Below are positions 31,831 through 64,000 of a stretch of 64,000 nucleotides of DNA, one piece after another (the first letter of the stretch is position 1; every line of letters begins with the position of its first letter). Source of the stretch: Trichoplax sp. H2. Lineage: Eukaryota. Location of the stretch: NCBI GenBank assembly GCA_003344405.1, contig NOWV01000147.1, positions 1 through 64,000 on the forward strand, written 5' to 3'. Below the pieces are notes generated by a model. It worked only from the letters and a program-made list of their open reading frames with translations. It was not told where the DNA came from and did no database searches. Position numbers and translations under genes: made by a program.

Positions 31831-32329
31831 TAGTTTTACCTACAATTCTAATCAATCAATCAACTATATACCGTGTATATGCTACGCATACAGTTATCCA
31901 TTTGTAGTCGTAGAGCAGTAACACTGTCCAAGGGATTCTCTACACGATATCACCAGTAGTACACAGTATCAATAATTATAATTAATAATTCTATGGTTGC
32001 TTCTTGGAGGCGGATCATTAATTATGTAAGCAGCGATGGCATCAATACTGTATTGATCCTTTAGCAAAATAATAGCGATTCAACATTGATTGCCAAAGCC
32101 TTGACTAAAACTACTGCTTCTCACTAGTGCATAAGACAGTTTTTACAATCGAAAGAAATGATACAGCAAATTATACCACTGTGTATAGAGATGACTCAAG
32201 AGCCATCTTGCCTTGTCTCCTATTAAGGGGAAATAGTCGTCACTGCTGTGGAAATACAACCTATTCAATCCAAAATAAAATTAGTCTAGCGCAAAATTAC
32301 ATTGAAATCGATCCTTCTATCGAACAACG

Positions 32330-40151: not shown

Positions 40152-43100
40152 ATGTCGAGTTTCTATCGTTTCATGACAACTGTCCTTGTGGCAGTAATCC
40201 TATCTAACGCGCCATACTGTCAAGGTGATAATGATGATCATCCTCGAGGACATTTCGACCGCCTTGGTAGCCACATTGATTCTGATGGTCATGTCGAAAT
40301 ATACGATGAAATCCCAACAGCCCAAAAGTTTTGGGAAAAGCACGTTCGACATAGGTTACCAGCCGTATTTCGTGGCGCAGCTAAAAATTTTGAAGCTTTC
40401 AACTTGTGGACAGATGACTATTTAAGGAAAAATTATGGTGACCTCGAAGTAAAACTAGAAGCAAAAGCAGAAAAAAAAAATGTACCTATTGGAACTAAAG
40501 GCAAAGGAAGGGATACCATTGCCGATTTCTTGGACAGCTATGTCAAGAAAGATTCTTATATCGTCTCACAATTGCCTGATCCGATGTCTCCTGAAATCGG
40601 TGTTTTACCTTGTATAACCTGTGGTTCTTTTAAAAATCGCATCTTGGAAGCTAATTTATGGCTCAGTAGTGGTGGTACTAAATCTCTCCTTCATAAAGAT
40701 GCAGGTAAAAAAGTTAAGCTATCGATACAAGGTTACTATCTTTCAATTTTTCTAGTCGAAGTTTTATTTATTGAAACTGAACTTTCCAATTAAAATATTT
40801 AGTTGATTAAGGTAAATTTCAAATTGTCAACTCCTTTTTTGGTGCTCGGTGCCATAACGCTTAGTTTAGAAGTAAAGCTAGAAAATTTTAGCCTAACTTA
40901 ATGTTACCATACTATAAACGTATAAGCTGATAATAGCAGCGATTTCTCATTCGCCATGACCTTATAGCCGTTTATGTTAAGATCGATGTTTAGTATCCGC
41001 TAAATTAGGCACTTGAGACATTTAACAGCTTCATAGATATTCTCTATCATAGACTTTTGTGGAATAGAGTTCGAACTGAAAACCTACATTTTACTTTGCA
41101 ATTTTTCAATTTATAAACGCTACCTTGACTCTTGAATAGCGAATAAAGATAATTTATAATAAAAATCTATACTTAGTACTTGTTCAAAGTATGCTACGAT
41201 ATGAATTGTTAGCATCTTTATAATGATATTAATTCAATGTTATTCATACACGGGAATGAATAGACAACGCTATTAATTGCCTCCTGAATGGAACCAAAGA
41301 TTGGCTTTTAATCCACCCTAAATACGAAAAATTCATTCCAATGGCCAAAGAAGCCAAATCAGAAGTTGGCGGATTCTCCACTATTAACGTGGATAAAGTC
41401 AATATTAAAAAATATCCTAACTTTAAGAAAGTCCATTACAACCATGCTAATCTATCACCAGGAGATTGTTTATACTTGCCTTATGGTATGTCAGCTAGTT
41501 GAGCTTTAAATAAATCTTTCTATTCACTTTATTCCACTATGGGAATATTGAACTCATTTAACCGAAAATGTCGATTAATTTAACTTGGTTATGTTCGAAA
41601 ATAGATTTGTTTATGGTAGAGAGATTTAAGCACTTCAATGACCATAGTTGTTGATTAAATCAAAATGAAATTACGAAGAGGCTAATAAGGTTTAAAATAT
41701 TATGTGTTCAACTAGCTTATTTGCATCAAGTTCGATCTTATGGCTCGAAAAATATGGCTGTTTCTGTACTCCTTGCAGCCGGACTCACTCACGAAAAGAC
41801 TTTTAATAATGAGGATTGTGAATCCAAAGACTACAAAGTTTTTCCAAAACTGACTGAAGTCAACATGGTGTGGACTTATCCAGGACATGGTCCACAAACA
41901 CTAGGTAGCATGGATCCAATGGAACTGAGGTAAATTTGTTTCAATATTATTAAACTAGAATAATCTACTTGCGTTGATAATAACTAGATGCAAAATAATA
42001 CAAGCCTATGGCAGGTGTATTATTTCTGGATAGTCATGATATTCTACAATCTTCATCAATCTTGTAAATGCTTTTAAATACAAAATACAACAGGGATAGC
42101 ATTTTGAAACTCTTTAAGAAAAAGGATAAAGTGCCGAGCGACAGATTCTTGCAAGAAGTTACAGCTGTAAGGAATCAAAAATAATCATATAAGATCAATT
42201 TTGTTTTAAACACAAAATGACTTTGAAAGAATCTTAGTTAAGCTGGATATTTTTTGCTGCAGATGGATGATGAAGAAGATGAAGGTTCCGGCATGATTAA
42301 AATTCAACATAAAGCTGTAAGTCCTTATTAGTGTAATATTATTAGAGTAGCAAAGTAAAGGCCCGTTCATAATAAATAACCAATTGATGACCTCTACTCC
42401 AGATGCTATAAAAGTAATCATTTCTACTTTGGATAAAATTTTAGTATACAAAACATTTTGGGCTGGATAAGAAAAAATATGTAACTGCAGAAGAGGTTAA
42501 TAAAATTCCATTTGAGCAATGGAAAGCATTAGCTGTTGATATGGATCCCGATCCAGCAAATACAGAAGAATATGAATACGCCTTATTTGATGTTAAGCAA
42601 TTTCAGTATGGCATAGAATTAACTATATAGCATTTTGATATTGAAGTAACGATATTCACACCCACATCTAGGAAGTTTAAAATAACAAAATAGCCACTCG
42701 TGTCTGTAATGTTTACACGAAATGGTGATTCTACTACAGGAATTTACTTATTTTTCTCTCTCTCGCTTTCAATGTAAATAGAAACGTTGTACGGAAATCT
42801 ATGAACCAGAAAAGTGGAGAATTAGATTCTGAAAAGTTTATTAAAAATTATATGGTAGACAATTAAAAATTACATAAGAAATTTTATTGCCATCCCTCAG
42901 TAGCTATACTCGTATATGTGTAAATCATAATTAATTAGTGATCAATTATACTTTTTTGAAGATGTTATTATAGTATTGATGTTTAACTAGAGTAGTATCA
43001 TAGAAGACAGTAACAGCTTTATATCCACTTTTGTTATAATCTTACTATCATTGCTATGATAAATTTATAGTACTTTTCTTTTTTTAAATGTAGAAAATCG

Positions 43101-43645
43101 GTGGTTCGGAAAAGATTGCAAATGATGTAAGTACTAAGACAGTAATTAATTTCACAAAGAATTAAAGTGAACATAGATTATGTGAGCTTACTTATAAATA
43201 CCGAGAAAATACGATTTCGATACGGATATAGTATGATAATCTTTTTCAATTTTAAATAAAGTTGAAAAGCTTAAGATGTTAACAATTTTAATGCAAGTAG
43301 CTAAACAAGCTAATCGTTAATTGCGTTTATGACATGTAGCTGCTGGAAAAATTCGACAGTAACAACGACGAAGTTATTGACGGGAATGACTTGGAGAAAA
43401 CTGCCGAAAAGGTTCTCAGTCTTTTTAAAGAACATTCTATGCCCCCAAAGAAGGTCGAGGTTAAAGATGAAGACTATCTCAGAGAAGAAGCAGAAACAGA
43501 AGAAGAAGGATTACCAGGTGATGAAGGAGATGATTTGATGGGTGATGAATCGGAGGGCGAAGGTGAATATCGTGAAGGCGAAGAACCTGAGGAAAGAGCT
43601 CCAAGAGATGATGATGAAAACAGAGATTATCACGATGAACTTTAA
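40152..43645 (+). CDS. ER-luminal JmjC (cupin-8) protein with EF-hand, acidic tail and HDEL; paralog A, 9 exons
   Basis: Signal peptide; FWEKHV..RLPAVFRGAA, LWTDDYL, NLWLSSGGTKSLLHKDA|DNAINCLLNGTKDW, GDCLYLPY|AYLHQVRS (HxD...H plus Lys). Exons 40152-40704, 41264-41485, 41716-41929 and six more with GT-AG borders. EF-like loop DSNNDEVIDGND; ends DYHDEL*. Confidence 0.87.
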
Positions 43646-45123
43646 GCAAGTTATTTAATCATAATAGGACAAGTAATAACATCGACAATATTATTAATTC
43701 GAAGTATTTCCTTTCAATATATCCATACACTAATGCAACATTAATATACCTTTAGGACTGCAGGCGATAAAAATGCAAAGATAACCAAATCAGCATGATT
43801 AAATGCAAGTCCACACGATTCAATGCCAAACATAGCCAATTAATGTGACTTTAAAGCGATAAAAATTAATCTTCGTACTGAAAACTTCTTGTCTTGATAT
43901 GTTGAATAGCCTAACCTGATATACTATACAATAATTTAATTTAATTTCGTAAATAAAGCATTTTCTTATTTAACCTATTTGTTATCAATGCGAGTAATAT
44001 TTATGAGTGATATTTTAATTAGCATCGAATGAAAATTTCAGCGCTATATTTTTATCTCATGAATGAGTTACCGCATGATGGAGTAGACCGCGATCCAAAA
44101 ATCGCGAAATTAAATGCATGCTGTTAGATTATATTTAAAAACCAAAATATTTACGAGTGGAGATAGAATCTCTATTACTAACCGAAATTGTCATGCAAGC
44201 AAATATCTCGATATTATTTTACTATATATTGCAAAGTTGAACGGCTAGGAAGAGTAATGAATTATAATAATAGCAGGAATATTATATTTCATGGCAGTAG
44301 CAAAGAAAAACTGTAAAGTACAATTATAAACATTGCCAATTTTTAAATATTGAATTAGATTAATTCTGAATACATCTCTCAATAACATAAAAAATCTGGA
44401 ATATGTTTCTTTCATTGATTTGTTTATTACAGAGCATAGTAAATAATAATTAATTGACGGTGTGTAAATAATAGACTACCGATTACTGCAATAACAGAGC
44501 AATCGTAGCCAAGCTAACTGTAGGGCTTAGCTCTAAACTACAGCAAGACATTTAAATCAATTCTAAGTGAATTTAGAGTTTATCAAGTTTCCATTTTATT
44601 TAAAGTGATTAATGATCTATAAATTTAAATTACAGTTATCCTTGTTTGTGCAACAGTGCAACTTTCCAATTTTTACATCTTAAAGGTCTGCATAATATGC
44701 CTATGGGATACAATCTTGCAGTAGCCATTCCAAGAAACAAAGCTAGATTTCGAACATAGTTTGAACACTAATGTCATGGATTAAAAAGTAAATACGCGGA
44801 AGTAGCGCTAACTTGACTCCAGATTGTAAATAAACAATAAACAATATAATCACATGTTTGTAAATAGTCATGGTAATTGAAAGTATATTAATAAATAGAA
44901 ATAAATGATTTCTTAATCGAGGTGCACAATGTTAAAGATGTTTATTCCATTAGGAAATCGTATTTTCTCTGACATTAAATCTTATAATACTGATCAGAAA
45001 ACTTAGTTCGCTGATAAATGCTGCCATCCGTGGATAATCGGCATTAAGGTTAAGTTAATATTATTTCACTAAACATTTTGATTATTTAAAATTTCAATTG
45101 AGTGGTTGAACTTGATTCAGGTA

Positions 45124-48100
45124 TCACAGCTCATCTAATATTCGTCCATCTTTTCTTTGTCTATTAAACTCTAATCTGTCGTTATCATCATCGTCAGATT
45201 GCTCTAATTCCTCATCTTCCAGCTTGTTTTCATCTTTTTCATCTATGATGGAGTCATTTTCATCTTCGTTCCGATCATCTTCTGGCTCATCTGCTTCATT
45301 ACTATTATTTTGTTCATATTCCTCGTCTAGAATATCTTTATATATTTCTAAAGCTTTCGGAAGATTTCTCTGCACTTCATTTTTATCTATAATGTTATCC
45401 TTATCTTCGTCCAAGGTATTAATAAACTATTTAAAAAATTACATCGAAAATGACTCAGATTATCGAGACACATATTGTGTTCATGTTTTAAACATTAAAA
45501 ATCTTGCGAGATACCTACCTTTGAAGCGAAATAATCGGAACCACCAAGTTTCTAAAAGTTATCAAGTACATAATTATTCTATCAGTACCAAGAAATTTGA
45601 TATTTTTAAAATCACTCGTATATCCTGGATTTAAATTGTCATGATAGAAATACTTAAAGTGACCTTGTATTTGTCAGTAAATTTTTGTTGATCGAAATAA
45701 CCTTTACTTTCTATAGACACTTTAGCAATTCGTCTAGAAATAGAAAGTCAATTTCAGTATTAATCACAGTAATAAAATGTTGAAGTTTCATAATAGCTGC
45801 ACTATTCCTCCTTATCAAGAAGTAATTAAAAATTATTATAGGCAATGGGTTTGTTATAATATCCATTAACGAAACCTAACGGAGAAGTAGTCCAAAACCA
45901 TTGCCTCGTAATTCAAATCATTTTCTGGGTTAGTTGCTAGCTCCTGAAGAGTTCTGATCTCATTGTAGACATTTACTGGAATTGAAAGTAGCTGTTGATA
46001 GGTAATATATTTTTGGCTGAAATCAATCCATTTCTCAAGCTATGTCAAATATAAGCATAATAAACCATGCCTGTTAATATTGTAAAGTATTCTTAAAGGT
46101 ATAGTATCATCTTATTAGATTTTATATAACACGATATGAAACCAGTATCCGATCGTAGATAATCCAAATTTATAATATTAAATTCCGTATCGATATCAAA
46201 TTCGCCATTGTCACTGTTTAGCATACAGACTTACAATCTTAATAACAGCCTGAAATATCCTCACTTTGCGAGATTCCTAGTATGCAAAAATGTACATTTA
46301 GTCAACTACAACCAATAGAGTTAGCGAATCTGATTCTATAGTCGTTTATATAGTTTACTGTACTGTATATTACATTTGCACTCTTAATATTAAATGCAGT
46401 ACTTAAACCATATCAGTTCGAATGATGTTGATGAATATAGAAATTATTGACTGTCGGTAATCTTCGCTTACTATTTTCAGCCGCTTTCGAAATACTGCTA
46501 AATCTATTTTCTCTGGCTTACCATGGAAAAATAATTGTAAGAATTGGTTACTAGATGGTAGATAAATTGGAAAGAAAATGTTACCTTTAAACGGCGCTAC
46601 TCTACTTATTTTAGTGCAACAGGTGAACAGAACATCTTTCATAATATTGAAATTTTGATACTTTTCACACACACACTCATGGGATACTTGAAACTATAGC
46701 ACTAAATCTTATTATAGCAGTAGGCAAGAAATAAATAAATACAAATGGGATTGTACTAGTGGATTACTCGGCACTGAAATATGAGCCATTCCACTCCTAT
46801 AACAAATTCTATGGCATAAAACATCCATTAAAAAAGATTGGGAAAACAACTAATATCACATTTGTAACCAACGGCAATAGATTAATTTCTGTATTTTATT
46901 ATAGTAACTTAATGCACAAATCTGGCTACAGGTTATATCATGCATAGAGAAATATTCAGCAGAAACTCTTCCAGTTAAAGAAGTACATATAATTTTATCT
47001 CAGAAAAAATTGCGTAGATTCGGAGAAACGTAAAGGTGTATTTTTTTAAAAACTTAAAATGAAATAATCATTTCGATACGGATAAACGGCACAGGCACTT
47101 ACGCGCTTTCTATTTGCAAACGGTTACCGAAGGTCATATGCCCGTAGCCAGGATATCGTAAAGACATTGGCACATTACTTAAAGTAGCACTTTCAACGTG
47201 ATCGCAACCAGTTTGGTTAAATATCTTAAAATCTTTCTTACTAATATCGAAAAGAATGGTGTAAGCCAAATTTTTCGATCCTATGGAACTTACTTGATGA
47301 AAGTAACCTATAAAGGGAATGAGACAGCTTTTTTATCTCTTGTCGCAATTATTTTCAGTTACACTTATATGGTGGACATCAGCAACGTAAACTCTTTACC
47401 TTTTCGGCGAAAATTACTACAATTTATTTAGACGTATGTTACCTTACTTAGATATACTGTACTAGTACGGCAACCTATTTTATTCTTATAGGTATACTGT
47501 ATGTCCTTCTGGTTGAAAATTCGAGTTAATTTTTTTACCTCTAGGCAGGTAGATGCAGTCGCCAGAAGTAGCATTAGCAAAACGCCAAGGAACTTTACCT
47601 ACTTTAGGATATCGATATAGATCTACTTTATCGACATTAATTGAGCAATGTCGACCCCCTATGCCATAACTACTTTCTACACCTAAATATTTACTGTACT
47701 TTGGCTCCATAAAAAGCCAGTTTTTCTGTCCAACCAGCAAACAATTCAGTGTAAATACTAGAATAAAGTATAAAGTTATTCGATTGTAACAACACACAAT
47801 TAATCCCATCACTATTGACAACCTATCAGAATATTTGAAACGATCACCATACAAGAGTTTACATTTTAGCTCAGAACAACAAACTAAGTGAGCTAAACAA
47901 ATCGAATCGGAGTTCTACTCCACTTACTTGGGTCACTATGTAATCGACTTCGGGTACTGCCAGAACTAAACCAAAGATGACTCTCCCTAATTCGGTTAGA
48001 AATAGATCCACATGCCATAAATGACGGGACAAGAATATCCTTGTGCATTGGAGCAGGCATCTCTGATACTATATAAACTTTTCTATCTTCGTATGTATCT

Positions 48101-48468
48101 AGGAAGTTGGAGAGTTGATCGAATCCTAGCCCCAAACTTCCGATCGGTTTCCTCTGATCTTCGGTTTTGCCTTCAATTTTAAATATAAATTTACCAAAAT
48201 TGCTCTTTAAATAGCGATCATTCCATAAATTAAAAGCGGGCGAAGAGCCAATAGCATTTTTAATCAAAACGGGTCTTGATTTGCTAAGATAATTTTCCCA
48301 AAACTCTCTTGGCGTCGGCAAACTGGTTAATGTGTCAATATGCCCATCAGGGTCACGTTGCATTCCTAATGGCTGGTTATGTCCACGCAAATGATCACTG
48401 GTTGTGCATACATTGATACTAAGAAATAGAAATAGGGTCTTCATGTAAATAGCATAACCTATGGCCAT
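45124..48468 (-). CDS. ER-luminal JmjC + EF-hand + LDEL protein; paralog B, 9 exons
   Basis: Signal peptide; GHNQPLG, SRLHSDP|IFTLNCLLVGQKNW, GDCIYLPRG|YFHQVSS; same exon phases as paralog A; EF loop DEDKDNIIDKNE; acidic tail ending ILDEL*. Confidence 0.85.
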
Positions 48469-49863
48469 GGCTCCTCTTAATTTAGTTAATCAACCACCAC
48501 GGTATATTGAAATATATATATAGAAAAATTTCTTTCGACAACGGTACCAAAATTAGTTTATTAGTGGCTAAAGCTACCCATTAAGGCGATCTTTTGACTC
48601 TAATAACATTTATTCATTTTCAAGGAAATCAAATAGGTCCAAATTCATGAATTATCTTGGTATAAAGTATAAATACAGCTAAAATGATAACTCAACAATA
48701 ATTACTTCGTTATCTATTGAATTATTCTCAGGGCAACCGAAAGTGATGAGCAATTTGACGAAAGTATCGCACGGTACAAAGGAGTAAGTAGATCATCTTA
48801 TCTGCCTATTCACACTATTGCCTTATAGTCTGAAATTGCTGTCTTTCTATCCCTCTTTATTGGGCTAATAACAAATACTATACAATTAATCATAAGTAAG
48901 CATCATTGCGAGCATTATTATTCATATATTCCTTTGTTAATTATTATACAGCAGCGAGATTGTTGTAATCTATTATATTAATAAACTAGAGACCACATCG
49001 GTAAGGCTAAGTGTCCATACCATTGATTAGTAGAAAGAAGCTACGACTCTTAGATTTGCATACTAGTTTATAGACTTCTAGATGCCTAAAAGTCCATGAG
49101 AAGGAACATCTAGTAATCTATATAAAAGTTGACGCCTCCATACTGGGGATGTCGTTGAATAAATTAGGCCATTTGACTATGGCTGATAGATGACAGTGTA
49201 GAGATTTTGAGCAATGTCTTATAGATTTGAAGACATAAGTATCTCCTATGTAATGTATCATATTACCTTTATAACTCATTACATCGAAATTTTAGGTCTT
49301 TTGCAGAAATGAACTAGCAAAACAGGACGCAATTAATATAATAAATTGAGAAGTTATTTATTCAGATACTAGAGGTGTCGTTAACTGTATTTTAGAGAAA
49401 GATTTTAATTTCAATCTAATATTGGTAAACATAGGACTAAGATCATATGGAATAAATATGCATGTAGTTATTGTTTACTATCATATTTTCTATAGTAATA
49501 GGATTAACTGACAACACTTTTAGTTTGGAGATGAATTACTTTAAAAAATCTTATTATTACTGAGTAAATGCAGTATTCAGTACTTTCCGAAGAGTATCGA
49601 TAAATAGGGTGATTGATAGTACAGGTAATAATTGTAGTAAATTACGCTATAACATTGTCAATAGTAAATAAAAATCTCACTATAATTTTAAGTGTTACTA
49701 ATATTCTAGTCAATGCAGTAAATGATTTCATCTCCATTAGATATTACTAGTATTTTCAAATGTCTTATCTATTTTTTGAATTTTAAAATTTTAAGTTCAT
49801 ACCAAGTCCAATATTATATAAAAAGATATTTACTGATAAAATATTACTAATATTTAAATCCGC

Positions 49864-52800
49864 TCATAGTTCATCGCGGCGTCGCAATAATTTTATTAAA
49901 TCTTCTTCATCGATATTTCGTAAATTTTCAGGTAATTCTTTACTTCTCAACAATTCTCTTATACGTTCAAACTCGTCATCTTCATCATGCTCACCACGAT
50001 CATCATCCTCTTCTTCTTCTCCTCGCTTATATAACAAATTTCTGACGTCGTGTGAACTGTCATTATCTTTCACGGTTTCGCTATAAGGCTCTACTGTCTT
50101 ATTTAAATTGTCTTTTAATTCGTTTATATCGATTATACCATCTTTATTTCCATCCAATGCAGATATTATCTGTGATAGTAATACAAATAAAGAATTCTTT
50201 CAAATAATGGACGACCCAAGAATTGGAGTAGAACAATTTATTTGCTTTCACCATTAGCTACAGTTTTGCATGCCATTGCTACATGGAAAAGGCATAGCAT
50301 AATCATCGAAATTTTCTTACTAACCTCTTGAGCGTACTTATTAGACCCACCAATTTCCTGAAATGGATGGATTATGTAGTTAGCATGCGTATGGCTTTTC
50401 TTATTATTATATAATAATTAAGTTTCGAACTCAGCTGATAAGTGATATATCTTACGTCTTATATAATTTACCTTATAGGCATTCGTAAACTGATTCTTAT
50501 CAAGTTGCTTGCTGCCTTTATCATAGGCGGCTTTAATAATTTCCCTAGCATCATCCAATAAATCAAAAAAATATAAGCTCATAGTAAGTTTATTATCAAC
50601 AACGATTTAATAAAATTAGTATAATTTAAGCAAAAATTATAGTGATTAGTGCAGCTTATCACCAGTACTCTACTGACCTGATCATTTTCCTGTGAAAATG
50701 AAGACGTTCATAATTAATATTGTTATGAGGCCGAGCATCTAATTCTAATATGGTTTGAATTGCTTTCCAAGCTGGTATTGGAATTGATTGTATTTGCTCT
50801 TTGGTAATGTTACCACTAAGGTCGATATGTTTTTTAAACTAAAAAAGCGAAATCGAATTAAATATAATAAGATGATAGACCATATGGTGCTATACTGCGA
50901 AACGATGTATGATCTATCTAGTTCAATGTAAGGTTAACTGAGAATCTCCCTCACCAAATCTATAGCTTTATTTACCGTAACCGTTGAAGTGGCAAACTGG
51001 AGAAAAAGTGAATAAAAAGAATTTAAATGAACAATGAGTAATTTTATATAGCAGAGTATATATAATATTCATCACTTACTATTCTAAAATAAAAAGACAA
51101 GCTTGATATAAATCAAGCGCTTACAGATTAATTTTAATAGACAACTAAATCGATGTTTTAGTTCATTAGCTACTAGTGTCCTTGACGATCGCTACTGTAT
51201 TGGAATTTTTCGAAGGATTTGATGTTACCTCATTAAGCAGCAGCTTAAGATTTTCTAAATCGCTTGGAAGCCCTCTCGATTCGAGTTCGTGTACAAAATT
51301 TCCCCTAATTAATAGATATTTTACAGGATTATATCTCTTTGGAATTGAACGTCAATACAAGTACAAGTTATAAATAATTTGTTACTTCCAGCTATACAAT
51401 TTACTAACATACCGGCTTTGGACAGGATTAATATTACCCATGCTCATGTGGCCATTACCTGGATAATCCCAAACTAATTCAATACTGTTTAAATTTTTAA
51501 TTTTTGCCTTTTTGCAATCTTGACGCTGCAAGTATTCTAGATCGTGATAGTCAGTTCTATCTAGTAGTACTGAAAACCCTACATTGTGCTTTCCTTTGAA
51601 ACTTACGATTTGAGAATAACCTGCATTGAAAGAGTAATAAGTAATCATCAAGGGTCAATAATTTAAAATCGTGACAAACTATCGCCGAACTAAAGTTTAA
51701 AAATCAGTTACGAGCATACAGCAAGAATAGCACCCTAGGGTTATAACAGATATTAAGTTGTAAATAGAGTAAAAGCCTGATAGAACGTATATCAGATTAG
51801 CTGAAATGAAATTTCTCGTTAGCCCTGTACAGCGTGTAGGATAATTGCTACGATACAAAAAAATTTCAAGATGATAATTTAATGGTGAAATTTATCAGAA
51901 CTTTAGATGCTATCACTATGAAACGCGATAAAAATTATTTCCTAAAGTGTTGCATTCTATAAAACTGATTATAGAATTTGTAATGATGAAACTTTACTCG
52001 TTTTGCTAATAAAATTTCACGGTTGACAAACATGTTAAGAAAATTATTATAATTCAGACGCAAGATAACGGTTCGTATTTCTTTTCTGTTAGCAGTTACA
52101 TTAAAGGTTAGGAATGCATACAATAATTCAATATAAAACACAAATGCCGCTGGTAACTTTATACATATTAAATAAATTAGTTTACTTGCATCTTGAAAGG
52201 AAATCTAATCCTGATAAAGAACTACAACGTGTTGGTTTTAATCATAGCGGTAAAAGAAAAAAGCTTTTTCTTTCAAATTGCTTATTCTATTACCTCTATG
52301 GCTTTCACATGCTCATTTGGGTTAGAATGACTTTGATTAGCATCATTCTGATTTATAATAACGGCTACTTTATCATTAATGTTAACTGTAGTAACGATAA
52401 TTTCATTTTAATGTCTTTCAAGATTATTTACCATGCGGAACATATAAACAATCGCCTCCTTTCACTTCGGCATAATGCCAGGGGACGGATGTTTCAGAAC
52501 GCAAACATCCTCGTATTTCATCATCGTCGAGATAAGCGACATTGGATGTATCGAAATCGGCAATTTCACATTTGGAATGTAATTTCTCGTTATATTTAGA
52601 TTCAATAAGAGCCCATTCTTCTTTTCCACGTAATAAGCAGTGAAGCATGGATGCTAGAAGTGCGTAAAGATAAGACAGAATTATGAAAGATTATCGTATT
52701 AATGGCAATGTAATTTAACGCCATTCACAAGATGACATATGTAGTCCTATTTGTTACTTACGCGAATCTCGCTGCCACTGGGTATGATGAGCGCCGAGAC

Positions 52801-53329
52801 TGATCAACAAATTACTGGCGAGAATACTACGAGTAATTGGACCACATGTTAAAAACGGCATGACTAAGATATCCTTTTGCATAGCGGTTGGAAGTTGCGT
52901 TTCTATGTACATTCTTTTACGAAAATTTATATCTAAGAAATTGTTTAATGTGTCGAAACCCATGCCTTCGTTTCCAGTTGGTGGCTTCATTCGATTTTTT
53001 TTATCAATAATTTTAACAGTAAGATTGCCGTAAGAATTTTTTAGAAAATTTCGATTCCATGTATGAAAAGCTGGTGAATATACAGCAATTCCTTTAATTA
53101 AAACAGGTTTAAATGTAGTGACATATTGGTCCCAAAATTCACTTGTAGTGGGTACATATTTAAGAATGTTAACAAATTGATTGGCAAGACTTTTCATTTC
53201 AAAAATCGGCTCTTCTTGATGGGCTTTTGCCGTAGCACTTTTCTCCTTGCCATCGGCTAAAGATGGATGACTCCACGAAACTATCAGTAAAAAACCAATC
53301 GCTAATATAGTATTCAGTCCGACCGCCAT
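49864..53329 (-). CDS. ER-luminal JmjC-fold pseudoenzyme + EF-hand + RDEL; paralog C
   Basis: Signal peptide; JmjC core aligns but reads TQWQRDS (H>Q), LRGKEEW (K>E) and PHGYSQIV (H>Q); EF loop DGNKDGIIDINE; ends RRRDEL*; no stops seen in the exons read. Confidence 0.82.
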
Positions 53330-54379
53330 GGTTCTATTCGATCCAGGCCAGGTTATAAGTTAAAGGCGTTTGCAATTTCGAGCTAAATAGTGCTATACAG
53401 AGTATATTGATTCAATGAAATTTTTCACTCATCAATTCATATGTGTAGTAATAGCAAACAGTGGCAATATTAATGGACAATACATGAATGGTAAGCAACT
53501 TACTAGTAGAAAATAAAAATCCTTCAAGATTACTAACGTATTCGTCTGTCTACCAACTCGTGTGTGAGTATAAGAGTAGTCTTAACGCTTGTTTTACGGC
53601 AATCCAACGGATATATTCATTTTAGGCCTTTTTCACTATGGCTAATTAACTGCTATACGAATTGGCAACAGTTTAACCACTCTATTTACTCCTTTCTATG
53701 CTGTATCTGAGAAAGGATATGGAGGCGTGTACATCAATCCAGTCTTTGTAAAGAAAATGAATAAAATGATAAGCCTATTATCATGTTAAATATAGAATAA
53801 TTTTACATTAATAGGACGAGCCATCATAGAAATAGCTTAAAGGCAGATTAACCTGAACGAAATCAAAGTTAAAATGTGTATCCTTGGTGAAGACTGTCTT
53901 ATTCCTCTTGGTCATTGGATATCATTGAGTTTTACGTTATAGACTAAAGCGTTTATAATACGTTTTTCCTCTATAGCCCGTCTCTCCACATTTATTTGAA
54001 TAGTTCTGACGCTCCTCATCGATAAAATATCCATAAATTGAGGTGTATTTCTTGGCATTTTACTGTAAAACAGTAGATTACAGCAGCGGTAATGAAAGTG
54101 GCCATTTTTTCTCCAGCTTCAATTTTAGAGCCATTCTTGGAGAAGTACACGCCAACCACTTGTAAGTGACGTTCAAAAGTCATTCATTGCAGTCACAATG
54201 CATGAGACATGTCAAACAAATAAGTTTCACCCCCTTGGTCATTCTTAGAGAATGGCATTGTTTAATATGTGATGGTTCATCCATTCGCTTCAGCCATACA
54301 ACGATCGTGCGACATTTCAAAATGGCGAGTGTCAACACTTCCTCATTGGTAGTAGTTTCAAGCCAGTAAGAGAAAAATT

Positions 54380-55160
54380 CCTTAAGCTAATTTTCTGCAG
54401 CAAAAGGATCATGTCGGGAAGGATAATTTCACAATGACTTACCTGAGTAGTCATTATCTACCTCTATATCCGCTTGAGGAGCAAGATTGGTTTCTTGAAG
54501 TCAAAACAAAAAATGTCTAAAATCTCCTTTCCTGTCATTTTAGCCAAAGGAAATAATCAGATCGGAAAGGATAATTTTATAATGAATGTAACTCTGTCGG
54601 TCATTCTACATACGTATAGTATATCGCTATGTCGGATTGAGGAAAGTAAGAGTTATTTCTTGAAGTAAATAAAAAAAATAAAAATCAACATAAAATCTCC
54701 TTTCCTGTAGCTCCAAGAGGAGACATGGTTGATCACTTTAAAGGGGTATCTCCATGTTTCAAATGAGTATTGTAAAATCTTACTCATTGCTGGTAGAATC
54801 AAATCAGGAAGAAAAAGCACTAAATCTGACTCTCTCCGGAGAAGTTATCAAATCAGGAAGGGTAATTTCATAGTCGCTAATAGACGTAGCCATTATTTTA
54901 TATCCGATTTAGCAGAGGAAATGAAATCAAGTAGGTCTTGATATCGAAACAAAAAATCATGAAAACCTTTTTTCCTGTAGTATTCGGAGGAGATAGTGCA
55001 GTTGTTACTTAATTTGACGGTATATTTCTACGTTCTAAACCTGTGCTGTTAAAACTTTGCCATTGCTAACAGTATCAAGCCAATCAGAAAAAGGATTTAG
55101 GTAAACTTTTAATAGTAGAAAATCGTCTGGTCGAGAAGGATAGTTTCATAACCTCACGTA
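54380..55160. repeat. Degenerate intergenic repeat between JmjC paralogs C and D
   Basis: Recurring motifs aaaa(t)c.c.tttcctgt (~54519, 54691, 54962) and atc....g.aagg.taatttca.a (~54408, 54555, 54848, 55125). Confidence 0.6.
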
Positions 55161-56129
55161 GCGAATAAGAAAGTTGTTAAAATCGATATAATTTAATTCA
55201 TGCTTACTTATTATGGCATATCTGATTACGATATGTCTTCTTGTATATGTATAAGTATAGATTAATATCTGCTCATACATCAAGTATATTATAAAAGTTC
55301 TAATTCCCCTGTAATTATCGAGGGCTGAACCAGACTGTACAAGGAACGGAACGATCTAGAGTTCTTCGTGATTAGCAATCATTGTGCAACACCAGCTACT
55401 ACAGATCAATGAATACTTTTACAATTATAAGGTAAGAAATCGCTATTTCCACCTATATTATATTCATTTACGTGCCGTATCCAAAATCCTTTCAATTGTC
55501 AAGATCGATTCATTTCATGACTTATAAATTGCACTATAATTTATGATCTTCTGCTGATACCTTGTAAACCTATGACAAGATCTTGAAGATAAAACTTGAT
55601 CTATTATCATTTATACTGGTTAAAGATGAACTATTTGAGCTTAGCAATCAGGTCAAATCTATCAGAATAAATTCTCAAATCCTAACACTCGGATCAATAC
55701 GTATGACAAGTACTAGAATGCACGTAGATTAACAACTTTTCTGTACAGCTGGCTCGAGTTTAAATTGTTTGAGGTTACTTTCAATTTATTGAATGCACTA
55801 TTAAGAGATGCAAGAGGTAGAAAAATCGAATGCTGATATGGCTGGCTACTCAAAAAGATAGGTACTGATGTAACATTGAATAGTCATACAAACAAATGGA
55901 ATCACTAAGCGACTTTGTATAAGAAAGGATTAAGCAATATTTTAATATGCCTAATATTGATCGCATAATTAAATATAGATGTAGTTATTGATTGAAACAA
56001 TTTTTCTCTTTAAGTTATAATTATAATTGGCAAAAATAATATTAATTGTACGGAAAATTTATCTTATGATTATCGCACATGGACAAGATACAATTATAAG
56101 GAAATAATTAGGAATAATTGAACGTCCAT

Positions 56130-59100
56130 TTATAATTCCTCGTGCATTATTTCTTCACGTTCGTCCACAAATTCAGCTCCATCGCCATTACCTTCATCAT
56201 CGCCCCCATCATCATCATCATTTGATCTCTCTTCCTTATTAACCGGTATGCCGGCTCCGTCATCAATTGGCCTATAATTTTCTTCGTAATGATATTCCAT
56301 TTCATCTTCATCGGGTACCTCTTCACGTTCCTTACGATAAACATAAACATCCTGATAGTCATTAGAGTGCTCGTCTGGCACGCTTTTCTCAAACAGACCC
56401 AGAACTTTCTTTATTTTGGCTGCCTTTTCTGATTTAGTAATTATTCCGTCACTATTTTCATCCAGCTTTTGCAGTAGCTAATTATCCACATATGTAAAAA
56501 TATCAGCAGTGAGTCTGAAGCTAACTGCATATGTGAAACCTTCCACTATGATCGTTTTATAGTCTTTCTAATTTAGTAACATTACAGGCTTACACACTTC
56601 GATATACAATTCAATGTATTGCATGAAATTCGAATTACCTCCTTAGCAATCTTTTCTGATCCATGTATCCTCTCCTAGGGTTAAAAATGTGAATAAATTG
56701 ATGACTATCATGCATTTACCACAAAGAATAAAATTTTAATCGAGATTGATTAAATATGGCAATCATATTACTTTAATCAAATAAGAAATTGTTACCAGGA
56801 AGAATCGCGTAGTCTTATCGAAATTTTAACTGATACGCACTGCAATACCCATTATTATGAAATCTAGATGTCGTTTTGCAAGTATTTAAGATTCTGGTTT
56901 AAAATTACCTTATAAATCTTAATAAACTTTTCACTATTAATTCCACCGTCCCTCCTTGTTGAATGATCGAATGCTTGCCTAGATAATGCGATGGGTTAAA
57001 ATAGGTCAGCACGAAATCGAACACGGTAGATTTCGATTTTGGTTTTACGACCGAATATAAATCTTTTATGATTTTTGAGCTGCAGGATAAATGTTGTTAC
57101 TTACTTAATCATAGCTTGAGAAAATTGAAAATACTCATATTGCAAGGTATTTGATGGATCGGTCTCCAGAGAAGCGATTATTTCTTTATATGCACCTAAA
57201 GGTACAGCTGAAAGTTCTGCTTGAGTAATGTATTTTTTATTCTCAAGTTTCAAGTTCCTTTTTAACTATAGATAATAAATTAAAGAAAACTTGGATTAAT
57301 CACCATTTACGATTTCAAAATATCATGGCAGTGAACTAGTAATCTCCATAAGACCACTTATAGTTCGCTACGATCTAGGATGCTTATCTAGGACTAACCA
57401 AAGAAACGGCCAACTTCGATTTCTCTACATCATCGGGCAACATAGTCTATTAATAACGCCTCTAATTAGCAAAATCATCACTGAAATTAACAATATTCTT
57501 AGGTTCCATATGACCACAGCATATTTTTACCCTCTTAACTCTAGTGATTAATAGTTTAGTTGTGATATTATTCTTCCCCTTAAAGGCTTTCAATATGTTT
57601 TTCCTATGAAAATTAATTCAAGAAAGTAGCTAATCAGCTTCTAATTCAATAACCGAAAATTAATTATAATACAGTAGATGTGCTCTTACGTATTCCGTAC
57701 TTACTATAATAAATTGAAAGATTAGTAACGTTAACTATAGTTAAGTATGCAATTCAGGATTGGTGAAATAAGATTAACTGATAATTAATTTCAAGCTTCA
57801 TGTCACAGCTATCAAAGGTAATGAAAGAAAATCTAACACTTATAACTATTCATAGAGCATTCTTCGACAAAAGCGATCATTGGCCACATTTCACATAAAA
57901 TCTAGAGTTAAGCACTTCTTTAAGCAGTGATATAATTTAAGTTATAACACAGGTATATCATATCAAGTATGATATTCATACCGATAGAAGATAGGCTCAT
58001 TTAATCCCATGGTCAAAGAGCCAACACCATCAAAATCCCAAGCAACTAGTGTATCTTTTAGATTCTTATAGACTGGTTTATCGCAGCCTGTATTATCAAA
58101 TTCCTTATTATGCGTTATAGTGCGGGAGAATAAAAATGACACAGCCATGTTTTTGTTACCAGATGAACGGACATGATGTAAGCTACCTAAAATCTCATTA
58201 AAATGGTGTAAGGTATGACAATTAATGGCATACTACAGCAGCTAAATAAGGTAGTCTGTACTGGAATATTTTAGCTAAACCTATTCCAGCTGTATTTATA
58301 GTATTAATTTCCTTTCATCGATAATGTGCTGAATTATCTGTTGTTGTATCTCACCATAAGGTACATAGAGGCAGTCTCCGGCAGTGACATTGGCGTAATG
58401 ATAGGGGCAATCCTTGAATTTGGGATACTTGATCAAATTGACCCGGTCAACGTCTAAAACAGAATAACCACCTCCAGCCAAACTTGGTTCTCTGGCTAAT
58501 GGAACCATGTGTTCATGTTTGGGATTGAACATTAGCCAATTTTTAGTTCCATTAAGTAGACAGTTGAGAATGTTAGCTATAACCATAAAAGGAAGGAATC
58601 AATGACAAGGCTTAATGCAATAACATATATTAGAGTGAATTATATCAGATTCTATACCGGTTCTATATTTACTGGTTGGAAGGTTCTTTACTATAGTATA
58701 TTCTAAAGTCAACTTTCTAGTTTTAAGGTATGATTTCGATTCGATATTTGTCATAAATATTTATTATTTTAATACTCGTTAATCACAAAGTTTCTCATTA
58801 ATGACGCTTGTAAGCAGTAGTAATTATCAGCATTATAAGAATTTATAAAGTCACTGTAAAAGCCAACTACTGTAAAAACAAAATTAACTATAAAAATCAA
58901 GATGATGACCCAGGATGTAAGTCAAATCTCGGAAAAATAGCTACAAAAATGCTGTCTCTTTTTAGTATGAATACCTTTAAATAGAGTTTAAATTCATAGC
59001 ATACTCTTAAGGTACGATGTAAAGAAAGAAAAGAAATTTATGGTAATCAAAACAAATATATTCTATCTTTCATAACCAATCAAGTTTTTTGTCGGATAGA

Positions 59101-60096
59101 TTTAGTTCTTCAAAATAATTAGCAAGATCAGATTGAATTTGAAATAAGGAATTGAAATCTCTGTAGCAATAGAGAAGCAAGAAGAATTGACTACTTGCCA
59201 AAGATTTTGAGTCAGACGATTGCGAACCTAAAGGGTTATAAAACTCAAGCACTACAACAACATAATTATTTCGAATTCTTTCTAAAGCTAAATAATAGTA
59301 CGAAAATGTCAGAACTTGTTAATTCTAGTTGTAAAGCAGACGAAAACAAATTCATCCGGAGGGCTTCAAAAGTGTAACGTTCTAATTTGAATGTCAGAAT
59401 CATCTTTTTAGAGTCAATGTATAGATCTCAGACTATTAATACGAAGTTTTGGAATGCCTACAAGAACATAGCTATCATCTCACTTAATACCTTAAAAATT
59501 TACTTAATGGGATTGCTTTGTGATAAGAACTTACGAGCATCCTTGTGCAATAAACTCCTAGTGCCACCGCTGCTTAGCCAAAAATTGACTTCAATAATGC
59601 TGTCTTTGAAAAGTCCACACGACATACATGGTGGAATAAGAACATCGCCATACATTGGTTTGGGTAACTGAGAAATTACGTATTTATCGTCTTGGACATA
59701 AGTGTTCATAAAATGCTTAATAGTGTCACGGGCTAGACCCATATCACCAACAGGATTGGGATCTTCCTCAAGTTTTCCTTCAATTTTAAGTGATAGATTA
59801 CCATAAGTATCCGATAAGTAAGAATCAACCCATAATTCTTTAGCAGGAAAACTGCTAGCAGCGCCACGAAGTAAAACTGGACGCCTTTTACTGACATATT
59901 TGGTCCAAAACTCTTTAGCTGACAACGGTTCAGTTATAATATCAACATGGCCTTCAGGATCACGGTGTAATCCAAGTTGTTGTAAATGGCCGCGCGGCGC
60001 CTTTTTGGATTGTTTTTTACCATCACCATGATGGAAAAAGGCTATTGCTAAACATAGAGTAAGAATGATACATTTATTGAGTGTTAGAATCGCCAT
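56130..60096 (-). CDS. ER-luminal JmjC + EF-hand + HEEL protein; paralog D, 9 exons
   Basis: ATG at 60096, signal peptide; GHLQQLGLHRDP, NFWLSSGGTRSLLHKDA|PNILNCLLNGTKNW, GDCLYVPYG|SLHHVRS; EF loop DENSDGIITKSE; ends IMHEEL*. Confidence 0.87.
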
Positions 60097-61985
60097 GTTA
60101 ACATTCAAACACTGTAATGGCAAATAGGTGAACTTGTCCTTAAGTAATTGTTAAATCTTTCTTAGATGTGTATAATAGCAGATTTAAGTTTACAAAGACG
60201 GTTGATACATCTATTGGTGGCGATTAAGGAGATCGTAGTTTTCTTTGTATAATTTTATTCATCTCTATTCTTATTCAGATAATTGACAACTTCTACAGGT
60301 AGCTGTTAGTTCTTCAACCATATTTATTGCCATCCGTTACGATAATTCTATTGCGTAAAGACAATGTAACTATGGACTTATTATTTCGACATGATTTAGT
60401 CCTTGATTGACAGTTATTCATAGCACTTAATTAATGTACATCCCGTGATACATGACGCCAGTCAAATAAACTTCTTAATCAAGTATGAAAGTGCCTGCAG
60501 AAAAGTTTTAAGGTTCAGACTATAAATATTAGCTACGGTACGTACCATTCAACTCAATACCTTTTATTTAGCGGTTTAAGCGAGGATCAAAGTGTGGAAA
60601 TGATTGTCACGTTAATGTAAAAATTAATTATAATGCCTTTAGAAGGTAGGGATGGTGCTAAATTCTGCCGTACTTAAACGTTTGTTAAGTAAAGTTAATA
60701 CAAAAACAGCTAAAAGTTATTTTGAACTCCCCATAAAAAAGCAATTTAACTTATTTCCATTATCAAGATGACTAATATCTAACGGTTATTGCTCATTTAA
60801 TTTTGTTTAAAGGCGCTATACTCTCACTATAACAGTTCTAACCTTGTGGCCTAGTTTAGTACTTCGGTAACAAACTCAGATTTCTAAGATTGGCATGCTG
60901 AATTTCGATTGTAAAGAGACTAGAGATGTACACCTGCAAGTCACTGTAACAACTATTATAAGTTTTTATATCAAGTTCTTGATACAGTAATCCTTAGTTG
61001 ATGGATATCGGCATTGGTAAGCACTTTTATTCAACATGCAGGCCATCATAGCGTAATTCTTTTATTATATGACCAGCTAATTCATCAATATGGATATAAA
61101 ATGCTACGTGCCCTTAGCCTGCTAAATATTTCAATGGTGATATTCCATATTAACTATTCATGATAACTCATTGGTAGTCGTTGTTCTGTATATCTGGTTT
61201 ATGAAACTGACTCGTATTTATTTGCAAACTGGTATAAATATGTAAATAACTAGACAGAATATTCATATGTAGAATTCTGATTTATACTCTGATAATTCTT
61301 TCTGTTGTAAATGAAGTTTATCGTTCAATTTCTACTAGAATGTAAGGGAAGGCACGCTAGCTGTCGTAATAGTATGGCAATAATTTAGATATTGCCGCAA
61401 TATCATATAGATAATATACGGGCATATCATGCTATCTGTGCATCAAAAGGTTGCGTGTCGTACGACCTTTAATTTATTTCTACTACAGTGCAACTTAATA
61501 ATCAAACCTCGACTTTATTCACAAGTGAATACATGTAATACCACAATCCCAACCTTACGGTCTCCTTTTACTTTAAATCAACAATTGAAATTTATCAAAA
61601 CATAATTACGTAGAGTACAGTAATTACGTATTTGTGACTCAATTTTTTATACGTCTACTAGTACTAATCATCTGTCATTCCTAGTTGCAGTAATTTTTAA
61701 TTTTACCGTATATAAGTCTAAAAACTCACTTTTAGGCAAAAATAGCTATTACATATCTCTTTTATTGAAAACATCCTTAATTTGCTTTTCCTGTCAGGTT
61801 AACAACATTGATAAATAATTCGCCTGTGCTCATTTTAATTTAGTAGTATACTAATTGAAAAAGATAAGTACCAGTACTGGCAATACTTAGAGATGTTTAG
61901 CAGCTAAACTAAAAATTAGTTTCACTTAATTAATATTATTATTAACTATAGAAGGTGTGGAATAGTTCAATGTAATTGGTCAAAT

Positions 61986-64000
61986 TTATAATTCATCACG
62001 AGTCGCACCTTTCTGCATATTATTATCGTCTTCTGGACCTCTATCATCGTCTTCTGGACTTCTTTCATCATCTCCGGGACCATCCTCTCCTTCTTCTTCT
62101 TCATCTTCCTCATCACCATTACCTTCATCGTCTCTACCGTCTGCTTCATTTCTTTCTTCGTCGTTTTGATCATTAGGATTTCCACTCTCTCCACGCGGCT
62201 CAAATAGGTGGTACCCGTTTTCTACAGAAATCCCTTTTCCGTCATCCAATCGTATATTTTCATCGCTCTCTGGATCCATCGAATCTTTTTCAGGAACTTC
62301 TGGACGTTCCTTACGATAAACATAGCTATCAGCGTAATCATTAACATGCTCAGGTGGCATATCTTGATCAAAAAGTTTCATTGTTTTCTTATAATTATTT
62401 CTCGTCTCCTCTTTGGTTATGATGCCATCCCCATTGGTATCCATTTTTTGTTTAATCTTATTTTAAAAGTAATAATTAGCGATAATTTTAGGTAAAACTG
62501 TTCAAGTTTACAAAATATCGCTGTAATAGTTACTTGCTTCCATTCGCTAGTCTTTATTATTTAGATAAAATGCATATAAGCGATTATGATTCATTTTATC
62601 TTGTTACGTAATATTACGAATACCTCATTAGCTATCCTTTCAGAACCACCTAATGTTCCCTAGAGTTGAAAATGATCAAACAATTAATTGTCTTAGAATA
62701 GAACAAGAGTTCGCATGAAGTTGCATCTTACCACGTAGGCTTCTGTGAATTTCTTGCCATCAAATATGCCTGATTTACCTATGGCTTTCTTAAATATCGG
62801 TCTTGAAAACAGCAATTAAACAATTTAGAAGATAAATATTAGATTCTATATAGCACAACTTTATACCGTCATATTTATGTGCTGTAATCACTGTGCGAAA
62901 AAACAATATCAGACTAACTGTATATGTTGCTAAGCTATAATTATCCAGTTATATGATAATAAAGAGTAATGTAGCTAAATTGTTCGAGCTTTTATATCAA
63001 CTTGTAATACTTTGACACAATCATCAGCATTATAAGCTTTAATTCAGCACATTTAAGAAACAAAGACACATTACAGTCGATCCCTTAAATTTTTGTAAGA
63101 TTACAGAATATTACTCGAATTTAATTGTATGGAATGGTGCCTAAGAAGATGCCTGATTAAATGCATCTAGAGGTAGTCTATCATAATTTCATCATGAAAC
63201 CAATATTTCATACGAATACTACTGTAAAAGTGAAGTAGTTCACTATGAATTAGATATTATGTCAGAAAATTTAAAAATTTAATTCTAATTATTCTAGGTG
63301 CTAGAATTTTTGAACGTGAAATATCTAATAGAAATGCACACGAATGTTAGATAATTTTCTTTTCAGTACAAATATTTAATCTAATTTATCGAATTTTATT
63401 CGATAGCTTGTACGTAATGTTTATTGAAAGATTTCTATAACTGTAACTTACGAGACTTCACTTCGTGTAAATTGACGATATTCATATTGCAAAGTATTTG
63501 CTGGATCCATTTCATTGAATATAATCATATTTTTCCATGACTGCATAGGTAAAGCCTTGATATCATCAACTGATATGGTTTCCTTATCATCAGTTATTTG
63601 CAAGCTATCTTTGTACTAAAGATAAAATATAGAATCAAATTATTGCTTTGGGCTTGCCCAAGTAGATTCAGTACAGAAAATTCATTCTTAAAATTTCAAG
63701 CATGAACATTTATTTTCTTTCTGCTCTTAGTTACAACGTACTATTTTATATCCTTTTTGATACTTCTCTCCTTCAAATTCACCAAGATAATCCTTTAAAG
63801 TAGAAGATATATTAAATATAGGCAAGATAACATCAAGATTATTTATGACTATCATACGCTTTCAACTAATATGATGAGATTAATTCAAATATGTAGTAAG
63901 CTATAATGCAGAAAATAGTTGCATACCCTGACAACATGCTTCAGTAGTTTTTTTGCGGGTAGAATCGACTTCTTTGCTTTTTTAAAAATATGTAGGAAGC
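61986..64000 (-). CDS. 3' part of JmjC/EF-hand family paralog E ending RDEL (5' exons beyond the window)
   Basis: Exons homologous to the 3' exons of A-D (DPANTLQYEYRQF, GTLGGSERIANE microexon), EF loop DTNGDGIITKEE, YVYRKER motif shared with D, acidic tail ending ATRDEL*. The JmjC exons are not in the window. Confidence 0.8.

Follow-up and report, generated by a model that had tools for sequence, protein, structure and literature searches.

A cluster of five JmjC-domain genes in Trichoplax sp. H2 encoding candidate hydroxylases of the endoplasmic reticulum with EF-hands and KDEL-type endings

Five JmjC genes and their transcripts

The DNA analysed here, below called the window, comprises 64,000 nucleotides from Trichoplax sp. 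H2 (contig NOWV01000147.1 of assembly GCA_003344405.1, positions 1 to 64,000 of the forward strand) and is AT-rich eukaryotic DNA with a GC content of 30-38%. Its part from 40152 to 64000 carries five related genes, gene A on the plus strand and genes B to E on the minus strand (Table 1); the JmjC domain is seen in A to D. The stop-to-stop frames of this part yield five sets of related exons, whose last exons end in HDEL, LDEL, RDEL, HEEL and RDEL. Five paralogues had been claimed here by an original prediction made from the sequence alone, and five were indeed found, four complete and one cut off by the window end. In a protein-to-DNA comparison, a relative from Nematostella aligned with the JmjC exons of the four genes A to D. 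Of gene E only the C-terminal exons were found, because the window ends there, and its last 385 bases contain no convincing candidates for exons upstream of 63615.

In the models of the five genes all introns are of the GT..AG type, and A to D have complete open reading frames (ORFs) for proteins of 551-574 amino acids (aa). The intron phases of gene A (1,1,2,0,0,2,0,0) were imposed on the exon search for B, C and E. RNA contigs were taken from three libraries of one study (runs X11, X15 and X17) and are treated as one source. Single contigs that skip the introns lead from the JmjC exons to the exon with the xDEL-type ending in gene A (1884 nucleotides, nt), gene C (2243 nt) and gene D (2483 nt). 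The splicing of these exons to each other, on which the original prediction depended, is therefore seen in the transcripts of A, C and D.

For gene A the contigs of all three runs together contain the eight coding joints and a joint in the 3' untranslated region (3'UTR). The 1884-nt contig reaches from the start codon (40152) into the 3'UTR, and record 19 of X17 spans 40152..43672. In the 3'UTR an 83-nt GT..AG intron (43673-43755) begins 27 nt past the stop and is found in contigs of all three runs. Exon 1 is 100% identical to TRIADDRAFT_27062 of Trichoplax adhaerens, a truncated public model of 323 aa, and residues 8-330 of the protein are those of the public model P0001. At least six joints of gene D are contained in RNA contigs, and record 18 of X15 covers its start codon; exons 7 and 8 were set by requiring that exons 2-8 sum to 815 nt, as given by the 2483-nt contig (record 21 of X17). 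The 2243-nt contig of gene C (record 4 of X11) lies on 49372-50169 and 52762-53392, and the 815 nt between these parts equal exons 2-8 of gene C summed.

No joints of gene B are among those listed from the three libraries, and its RNA cover is unspliced or partial over the 5' part and almost absent over the 3' half. The database protein P0111 has 456 aa and shares 99% identity with the gene B model over residues 1-322 and 418-551. It is without exons 4-6, exon 3 being directly joined to exon 7, and its JmjC part is still linked to the LDEL exon. An exon omitted in P0111 holds the N..E motif of the EF-hand domain (NPENDLNYE in B, DPANTEEYEY in the family consensus). Either P0111 is an alternative isoform or the annotation has a gap.

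A sixth full-length paralogue, P0042 (TRIADDRAFT_64017, 600 aa, ending in RDEL), is encoded on the same scaffold beyond the window. From 40343 to 60059 there are many single-base differences between RNA contigs and window, such as those at 40343, 40352 and 40691 and a synonymous one at 43342. The contigs bear another organism label than the best-matching DNA records, and the differences may be those of strain or sister lineage rather than traces of editing.

Table 1. Coordinates of the five JmjC genes and of their motifs within the window
Feature	Position	Strand	Description	Basis or remark
Gene A	40152..43645	+	562 aa, 9 coding exons, ends HDEL, stop 43643-45	RNA contigs and complete ORF
Gene A, coding exons 1-5	40152-40704, 41264-41485, 41716-41929, 42094-42166, 42263-42316	+		
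Gene A, coding exons 6-9	42445-42605, 42782-42854, 43094-43126, 43340-43645	+		
Gene A, GHFDRLG	40248..40268	+	family GHxxxhG motif, N-terminal	motif named in PMC2938197 Table 1
Gene A, H181-K-D183	40692..40700	+	metal-binding HxD	aligns to JMJD5 H..D
Gene A, Lys in LLNGTK	41281-41298	+	2-oxoglutarate-binding Lys	aligns to JMJD5 K
Gene A, H264 in YLHQV	41724-41726	+	second His	aligns to JMJD5 H
Gene A, EF-hand 4 loop	43355..43390	+	DSNNDEVIDGND	
Gene A, C-terminal HDEL	43631..43642	+		
Gene B	45124..48468	-	551 aa, 9 exons, ends LDEL (45127-45138)	homology-guided model, complete ORF
Gene B, exons 1-5	48468-47928, 47757-47539, 47307-47103, 46550-46472, 46276-46235	-		exons 4 and 5 weak
Gene B, exons 6-9	46039-45876, 45733-45664, 45551-45519, 45426-45124	-		
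Gene B, HSD	47932-47940	-		
Gene B, second His	47297-47299	-		
Gene B, EF loop	45376-45411	-	DEDKDNIIDKNE	
Gene C	49864..53329	-	562 aa, 8 exons (4+5 fused), ends RDEL (49867-49878)	
Gene C, exons 1-4	53329-52762, 52653-52432, 51620-51413, 51304-51187	-		
Gene C, exons 5-8	50838-50678, 50544-50472, 50357-50325, 50169-49864	-		
Gene C, Q186-R-D188	52766..52774	-	in place of family HxD	
Gene C, Q267 (YSQIV)	51610-51612	-	second ligand position	
Gene C, EF loop	50119-50154	-	DGNKDGIIDINE	canonical, last exon
Gene D	56130..60096	-	574 aa, 9 exons, ends HEEL (56133-56144)	RNA joints and length bookkeeping
Gene D, exons 1-5	60096-59535, 58576-58355, 58186-57982, 57603-57531, 57446-57399	-		
Gene D, exons 6-9	57265-57105, 56978-56909, 56674-56639, 56477-56130	-		
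Gene D, HKD	59539-59547	-		
Gene D, second His	58176-58178	-		
Gene D, EF loop	56427-56462	-	DENSDGIITKSE	
Gene E	61986..64000	-	cut by window end, ends RDEL (61989-62000)	homology only, outside RNA-compared stretch
Gene E, last four exons	63615-63452, 62801-62732, 62659-62624, 62456-61986	-		
Gene E, EF loop	62406-62441	-	DTNGDGIITKEE	

Domain architecture and conservation

The proteins A to D are built in the same order: a hydrophobic N-terminus, a Cupin_8/JmjC domain, a helical domain of four EF-hands, a disordered acidic tail and a C-terminal ending of the xDEL type. The architecture of putative signal peptide, JmjC, EF-hand, acidic tail and xDEL that had been described from the letters is present, is spliced into one mRNA and is kept far beyond Trichoplax. 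The N-terminus is the sole hydrophobic stretch of A to D and there is no internal transmembrane segment; the combination of an N-terminal signal with JmjC stands for these four genes, the signal by hydropathy only and the domain by its exons. Pfam Cupin_8 matches the first two exons of A and of D, and it scores 101 bits in P0042 and 96.5-119.8 bits in seven relatives. Of the models for oxygenase domains only Cupin_8 and JmjC match proteins of the family, and no match to Pfam 2OG-FeII_Oxy was found in them. A, B, D and P0042 possess the GHxxxhG motif, which is GHxxxLG in A, B and D, as well as an intact HxD...H triad and the Lys that binds 2-oxoglutarate (2OG).

In each of the five genes the last exon encodes a single canonical EF loop of 12 residues, and Asp and Glu account for 38-46% of the 71-127 residues past this loop in the window copies. 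Loop, composition and C-termini hence confirm the EF-hand-like loop, the Asp/Glu-rich tail and the xDEL-type end of the copies. Recurrent N-glycosylation sequons, which had also been proposed, are present in A (NGT and NLS), in D (NGT and NVT) and in B (only NAT), but C has neither. The classical pattern for retrieval to the endoplasmic reticulum (ER) is a C-terminal [KRHQSA][DENQ]EL. All endings had been taken as KDEL-type; HDEL of A, RDEL of C, HEEL of D and RDEL of E do fit this pattern, whereas LDEL of B does not.

By sequence the closest solved relative is JMJD5 (E 1e-13), which holds the same rank by fold. The comparison by AlphaFold and Foldseek that had been suggested was made with P0042 and gave a JmjC barrel of the JMJD5 type and a four-EF-hand domain. 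The AlphaFold2 model, calculated with the family alignment, has a predicted local distance difference test score (pLDDT) above 90 for about residues 30-485, a disordered tail from 489 and a predicted template modelling (TM) score, pTM, of 0.79. Its top match in Foldseek is 7dyw, human JMJD5 (E 9.5e-17, TM 0.83-0.85 on target, 23-25% identity), and after JMJD5 follow JMJD7, TYW5 and FIH, in a ranking that the search by sequence repeats.

Searched as a profile, the C-terminal domain resembles NCS-1 (E 1.2e-8) as well as neurocalcin, hippocalcin, KChIP and calmodulin; the similarity falls into two separate stretches, which indicates two EF-hand pairs. An AlphaFold2 model of this domain (pLDDT 81.6) found weak matches that were four-EF-hand proteins only, among the matches listed (E from 7.7e-4, TM about 0.3). 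In P0042 the remaining three EF loops are degenerate. Relatives from echinoderms and hemichordates have a canonical second loop as well, and in the starfish relative P0014 Pfam EF-hand models lie above their cut-offs.

Two word-indexed database searches revealed 94 related proteins, which originate from sponges, cnidarians, Trichoplax, echinoderms, hemichordates, amphioxus and tunicates and, more distantly, from molluscs and a brachiopod. Vertebrates, arthropods and nematodes are missing among the named matches, many matches being unnamed. An exhaustive profile search resulted in 467 representative clusters at E <=1e-30, and in the ESM Atlas only the family's own clusters matched. In an alignment of 54 full-length members (A1) the residues D181, K194, H260, W168, S176 and N187 (alignment numbering) are invariant in all 54, and H179 is kept in 53. 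Four cysteines, presumably disulfide-forming and present in A to D, are likewise invariant (54/54). The columns of the GHxxxhG motif are conserved in 49 (G31), 52 (H32) and 54 (G37) of the 54 members, and sequons occur at YANx[ST] in 31/54 and at NGT in 35/54.

A C-terminal [KRH]x[DE][LF] is found in 83 of the 94 database relatives. Several of the 11 termini that do not match belong to short models, and one of them, P0001, is the truncated model of gene A. By a rough estimate, a random C-terminus would match this pattern a few times per thousand. A further 137 representatives were collected, 98 of them with a length of at least 380 aa; 65 of these 98 show the ending, and 83 have a signal-like N-terminus according to a hydropathy rule. 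A hand check of the termini against the tree showed the ending in all three deep clades, and for this reason the xDEL-type ending is ancient.

A quick maximum-likelihood tree of 71 proteins places all Trichoplax copies within one clade of 32 rows (support 90), in which B pairs with C (97) and D with P0042 (100), while A is unresolved. A single clade of the five full-length Trichoplax proteins (A to D and P0042) was not recovered in this tree, and the approximately unbiased test does not reject it (p 0.41, log-likelihood difference 0.97). The cluster fits a placozoan tandem expansion, which these sequence comparisons do not prove.

Gene C has a Gln in place of both metal-binding histidines, lacks the GHxxxLG motif and forms the longest branch among the Trichoplax copies. 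This loss of ligands had been missed in the original prediction. Among the listed differences between RNA and window there is none at either Gln. Despite the lost ligands gene C is transcribed and correctly spliced, as the RNA contig demonstrates, and judged by its sequence it is probably a pseudoenzyme that acts as a non-catalytic binder.

Candidate compartment and function

Proteins of this kind were described earlier. Iyer, Abhiman, de Souza and Aravind (2010) defined a 'Secreted JMD5-like family' that occurs in animals only and has disappeared from vertebrates, arthropods and nematodes; it is characterized by conserved disulfide cysteines, a GHxxxhG motif, three subfamilies and lineage-specific expansions (PMC2938197). 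They predicted the family to be secreted and to hydroxylate cell-surface proteins, and list JMJD8, with HxH, as a separate family in their Table 1. Cao et al. (2019) introduced the name HRJD, gave KDM8 as the closest human paralogue and counted 16 copies in Trichoplax (Table 1 of PMC6390904). RNA interference (RNAi) against planarian HRJD led to a failure of regeneration; histone demethylation was proposed, and HRJDs were said to be JmjC-only (PMC6390904). A JmjC domain together with an EF hand motif is reported for planarian HRJDs in a paper of 2024. Mis-expressed in Drosophila, 3xFLAG-tagged HRJDs were cytoplasmic and not nuclear, and they had a non-cell-autonomous effect on septate-junction proteins (PMC11295675). 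HRJD mis-expression in flies also changed lifespan and gut barrier function, and HRJD knock-down kills regenerating planarians. Research treats the HRJDs as 'epigenetic' genes linked to regeneration, and their molecular function is described as unknown in the literature.

We regard the window genes as placozoan members of this HRJD or secreted JMJD5-like family. What links them to HRJD are the features in common and the name 'Mina53-like 1', borne by the match P0032. The view of the original prediction that the family is uncharacterised and its architecture unknown has therefore to be given up, since it was described in 2010, named in 2019 and partly studied since. What we did not find in print, and consider as the new point, is the ER-retrieval signal and its conflict with the published histone-demethylase hypothesis. 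The terms 'signal peptide', 'endoplasmic' and 'KDEL' are absent from the main texts, supplements excluded, of PMC2938197, PMC6390904, PMC11295675 and PMC11077316, and a literature search found no paper joining JmjC, KDEL and EF-hand.

An architecture that is spliced into one mRNA and widely conserved is best read as that of an ER-luminal 2OG oxygenase. We consider it fairly probable that the genes form a placozoan tandem family of JMJD5-type Fe(II)/2OG protein hydroxylases which reside in the ER lumen, are retrieved by the KDEL receptor and bear a Ca2+-binding appendage. What we infer here from the sequences is that the proteins enter the ER and are retained there, that they are catalytically active and bind Ca2+, and what type of substrate they act on. 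The N-terminal signal peptide would take each protein into the ER, and retrieval of the C-terminal xDEL by the KDEL receptor would keep it in the lumen. The JMJD5-type barrel would hydroxylate secretory or membrane proteins with Fe(II) and 2-oxoglutarate; signal peptide, xDEL, invariant cysteines and sequons taken together point to ER-luminal protein hydroxylases. More speculatively, the four-EF-hand domain and the polyacidic tail might couple the enzyme to luminal Ca2+, either by way of regulation, as proposed for P4H-TM, or by low-affinity binding of Ca2+. The cluster itself would have arisen by tandem duplication in the placozoan lineage, with the expressed copy C losing both metal histidines. 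JMJD8 offers a precedent that a JmjC protein may be luminal (PMC5684140).

A number of observations weigh against ER residence or against a role of Ca2+. Iyer et al. predicted secretion and action at the cell surface, not residence in the ER (PMC2938197). The strict pattern [KRHQSA][DENQ]EL is present in only 47 of the 94 termini, and LDEL of gene B is outside even the broad [KRH]x[DE][LF]. Of the four EF loops in the Trichoplax copies, just one is canonical. The Pfam EF-hand model stays below its gathering cut-off (22.7 against 25 bits in P0042; E 2.5e-4 to 0.3 in the last exons) and has no match in the last exon of gene A. The localisation published in 2024 was obtained with an N-terminal 3xFLAG, which neither tests nor confirms entry into the ER. 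The claim of a signal-like N-terminus and xDEL covers the relatives from the animal groups listed above and does not extend to the planarian HRJDs.

If the xDEL-like ends were weak or non-functional, the proteins could be secreted or act as hydroxylases at the cell surface. This is what Iyer et al. (2010) suggest by calling the family secreted, and the non-cell-autonomous effect in Drosophila and the 47 of 94 termini that deviate from the strict pattern are consistent with it. We nevertheless consider it unlikely, though the most serious competitor, as it is difficult to see how an ending shared by 83 of 94 relatives and by all three deep clades could have persisted unless retrieval was selected for. 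The variants HDEF, HEEF and QEDL function in the ER residents calumenin, Cab45 and ERp57, and 2OG/Fe(II)/ascorbate chemistry is known to take place in the ER lumen (collagen P4H, PLOD, ASPH) and is doubtful outside cells; both facts count against secretion. Proteins that stay in the ER might on the other hand be mainly non-catalytic, serving as Ca2+ buffers or in a chaperone-like manner with the JmjC barrel as a binding module. The polyacidic tails of the window copies and the EF-hands would suit such a role, as would copy C, which is expressed and correctly spliced without both His ligands, and JMJD8, whose metal site is non-standard and which was found with folding factors (PMC5684140). However, the metal triad and the 2OG residues are invariant or kept in 53/54, which argues for selection on catalysis, and beyond Trichoplax the tails are short, with a median of 47 residues, and contain less Asp and Glu (median 26%), so that we think a mainly non-catalytic role improbable.

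JMJD5 is an arginyl hydroxylase rather than a demethylase, which counts against reading the genes as nuclear or cytoplasmic histone demethylases or epigenetic regulators. This reading follows Cao et al. (2019) and can refer to a JmjC domain that is paralogous to KDM8/JMJD5, to the conserved ligand residues and to the impaired regeneration after planarian RNAi (PMC6390904). It is nevertheless very improbable, given the signal-like N-terminus, the xDEL, the invariant cysteines and the sequons of the family, and mis-expressed HRJDs were not nuclear (PMC11295675). The matched human JMJD5 structures were moreover crystallised, according to their entry titles, with RPS6 and RCCD1 peptides. Among the rivals a role at chromatin fits the sequences worst.

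For the whole HRJD family, from sponges to tunicates, the chances seem about even that its members are catalytically competent ER-luminal JmjC hydroxylases under Ca2+ control which act on secretory or membrane proteins. If this is true, the phenotypes in regeneration, lifespan and junctions would stem from the hydroxylation of secretory or membrane proteins and not from chromatin. The secretory pathway would then have its first JmjC enzymes with a standard HxD...H site, which vertebrates, arthropods and nematodes would have lost. The dead Trichoplax paralogue C may then serve as a substrate-binding decoy. Signal peptide, ER-retrieval ending, cysteines and EF-hands would put the enzyme across the ER membrane from histones and would turn the search for substrates to secretory and junctional proteins. 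Tags at either terminus would mask the signal peptide or the xDEL.

Neighbouring genes and comparison with known systems

A second tandem family is located on the minus strand at 888-15071 of the window. It consists of four long single-exon ORFs (888-2210, 4350-6119, 8954-10702 and 13401-15071) of 440-589 aa from stop to stop, the first of which looks truncated. They have signal-like N-termini and acidic C-terminal parts and match Pfam 2OG-FeII_Oxy_3 and Oxy_4, two of the four in two stretches. These proteins correspond to TRIADDRAFT_57489 and relatives, and the 55 relatives named 'uncharacterized' are found in sponges, a ctenophore, cnidarians, amphioxus, hemichordates and echinoderms, a range like that of the JmjC family. 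The ending [KRH]x[DE][LF] occurs in nine of the 55, several of which are coral proteins with KDEL, and is absent from the Trichoplax copies. A sequence search of the PDB with an upstream 2OG-oxygenase ORF gave a single weak match. Judged from these features, the window contains two neighbouring expanded families, unrelated to each other, of probable 2OG oxygenases of the secretory pathway. Between the two clusters, both on the plus strand, lie a single-exon serine carboxypeptidase with a signal-like N-terminus (32306-33673; Peptidase_S10, E 7e-127) and a GST_N_4/GST_C_6 protein (35703-36680).

With the HRJDs the window genes share a JmjC-only oxygenase nearest to KDM8/JMJD5, the range in animals, the GHxxxhG motif, the cysteines, the expansions and the EF hand motif; an ascidian 'Mina53-like 1', cited as HRJD, bears the same name as P0032. 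There is no structural difference between the two, and they differ in interpretation only. JMJD5/KDM8 is the best match in sequence and fold and has the HxD...H, Lys, Asn, Ser and Trp at the same positions. In contrast to the family it lacks a signal peptide, an EF-hand domain and an xDEL, its location is nuclear (as cited in PMC11295675), and in Figure 2A of Cao et al. (2019) it forms a clade separate from HRJD with a bootstrap value of 100 (PMC6390904). JMJD8 is also JmjC-only, has a signal peptide and is ER-luminal (PMC5684140), but at the metal site it shows HxH (PMC5684140; Table 1 of PMC2938197), where A and D of the window have HKD and B has HSD. The name JMJD8 does not occur among the named matches of the database searches. 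A family distinct from JMJD8 is supported by its invariant or nearly invariant HxD as opposed to HxH. The separation from JMJD8 and KDM8 is drawn from motifs, names, PDB matches and two papers.

EF-hands or acidic low-affinity Ca2+ regions are also known from CREC proteins (reticulocalbin, calumenin, Cab45), calreticulin and ASPH/junctate. CREC-type proteins have a signal peptide and endings such as HDEL, HDEF or HEEF and do not contain an oxygenase domain; their EF domains were compared with those of the family only through generic EF-hand matches. P4H-TM, a 2OG dioxygenase of the ER, has an EF domain that binds Ca2+ at the concentrations found in the ER (PMC7948501). It resembles the family as an Fe(II)/2OG dioxygenase of the ER with a Ca2+-binding EF domain, which is an analogy of architecture only: P4H-TM has a P4H-type fold, its EF domain is inserted within the catalytic domain, and it possesses a membrane anchor rather than an xDEL. 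ER-luminal 2OG oxygenases are a small set, consisting of collagen P4H, P3H, PLOD, ASPH and P4H-TM. The proteins encoded by the Trichoplax cluster would join this set as its JmjC type and would provide a second example of EF-hand coupling there.

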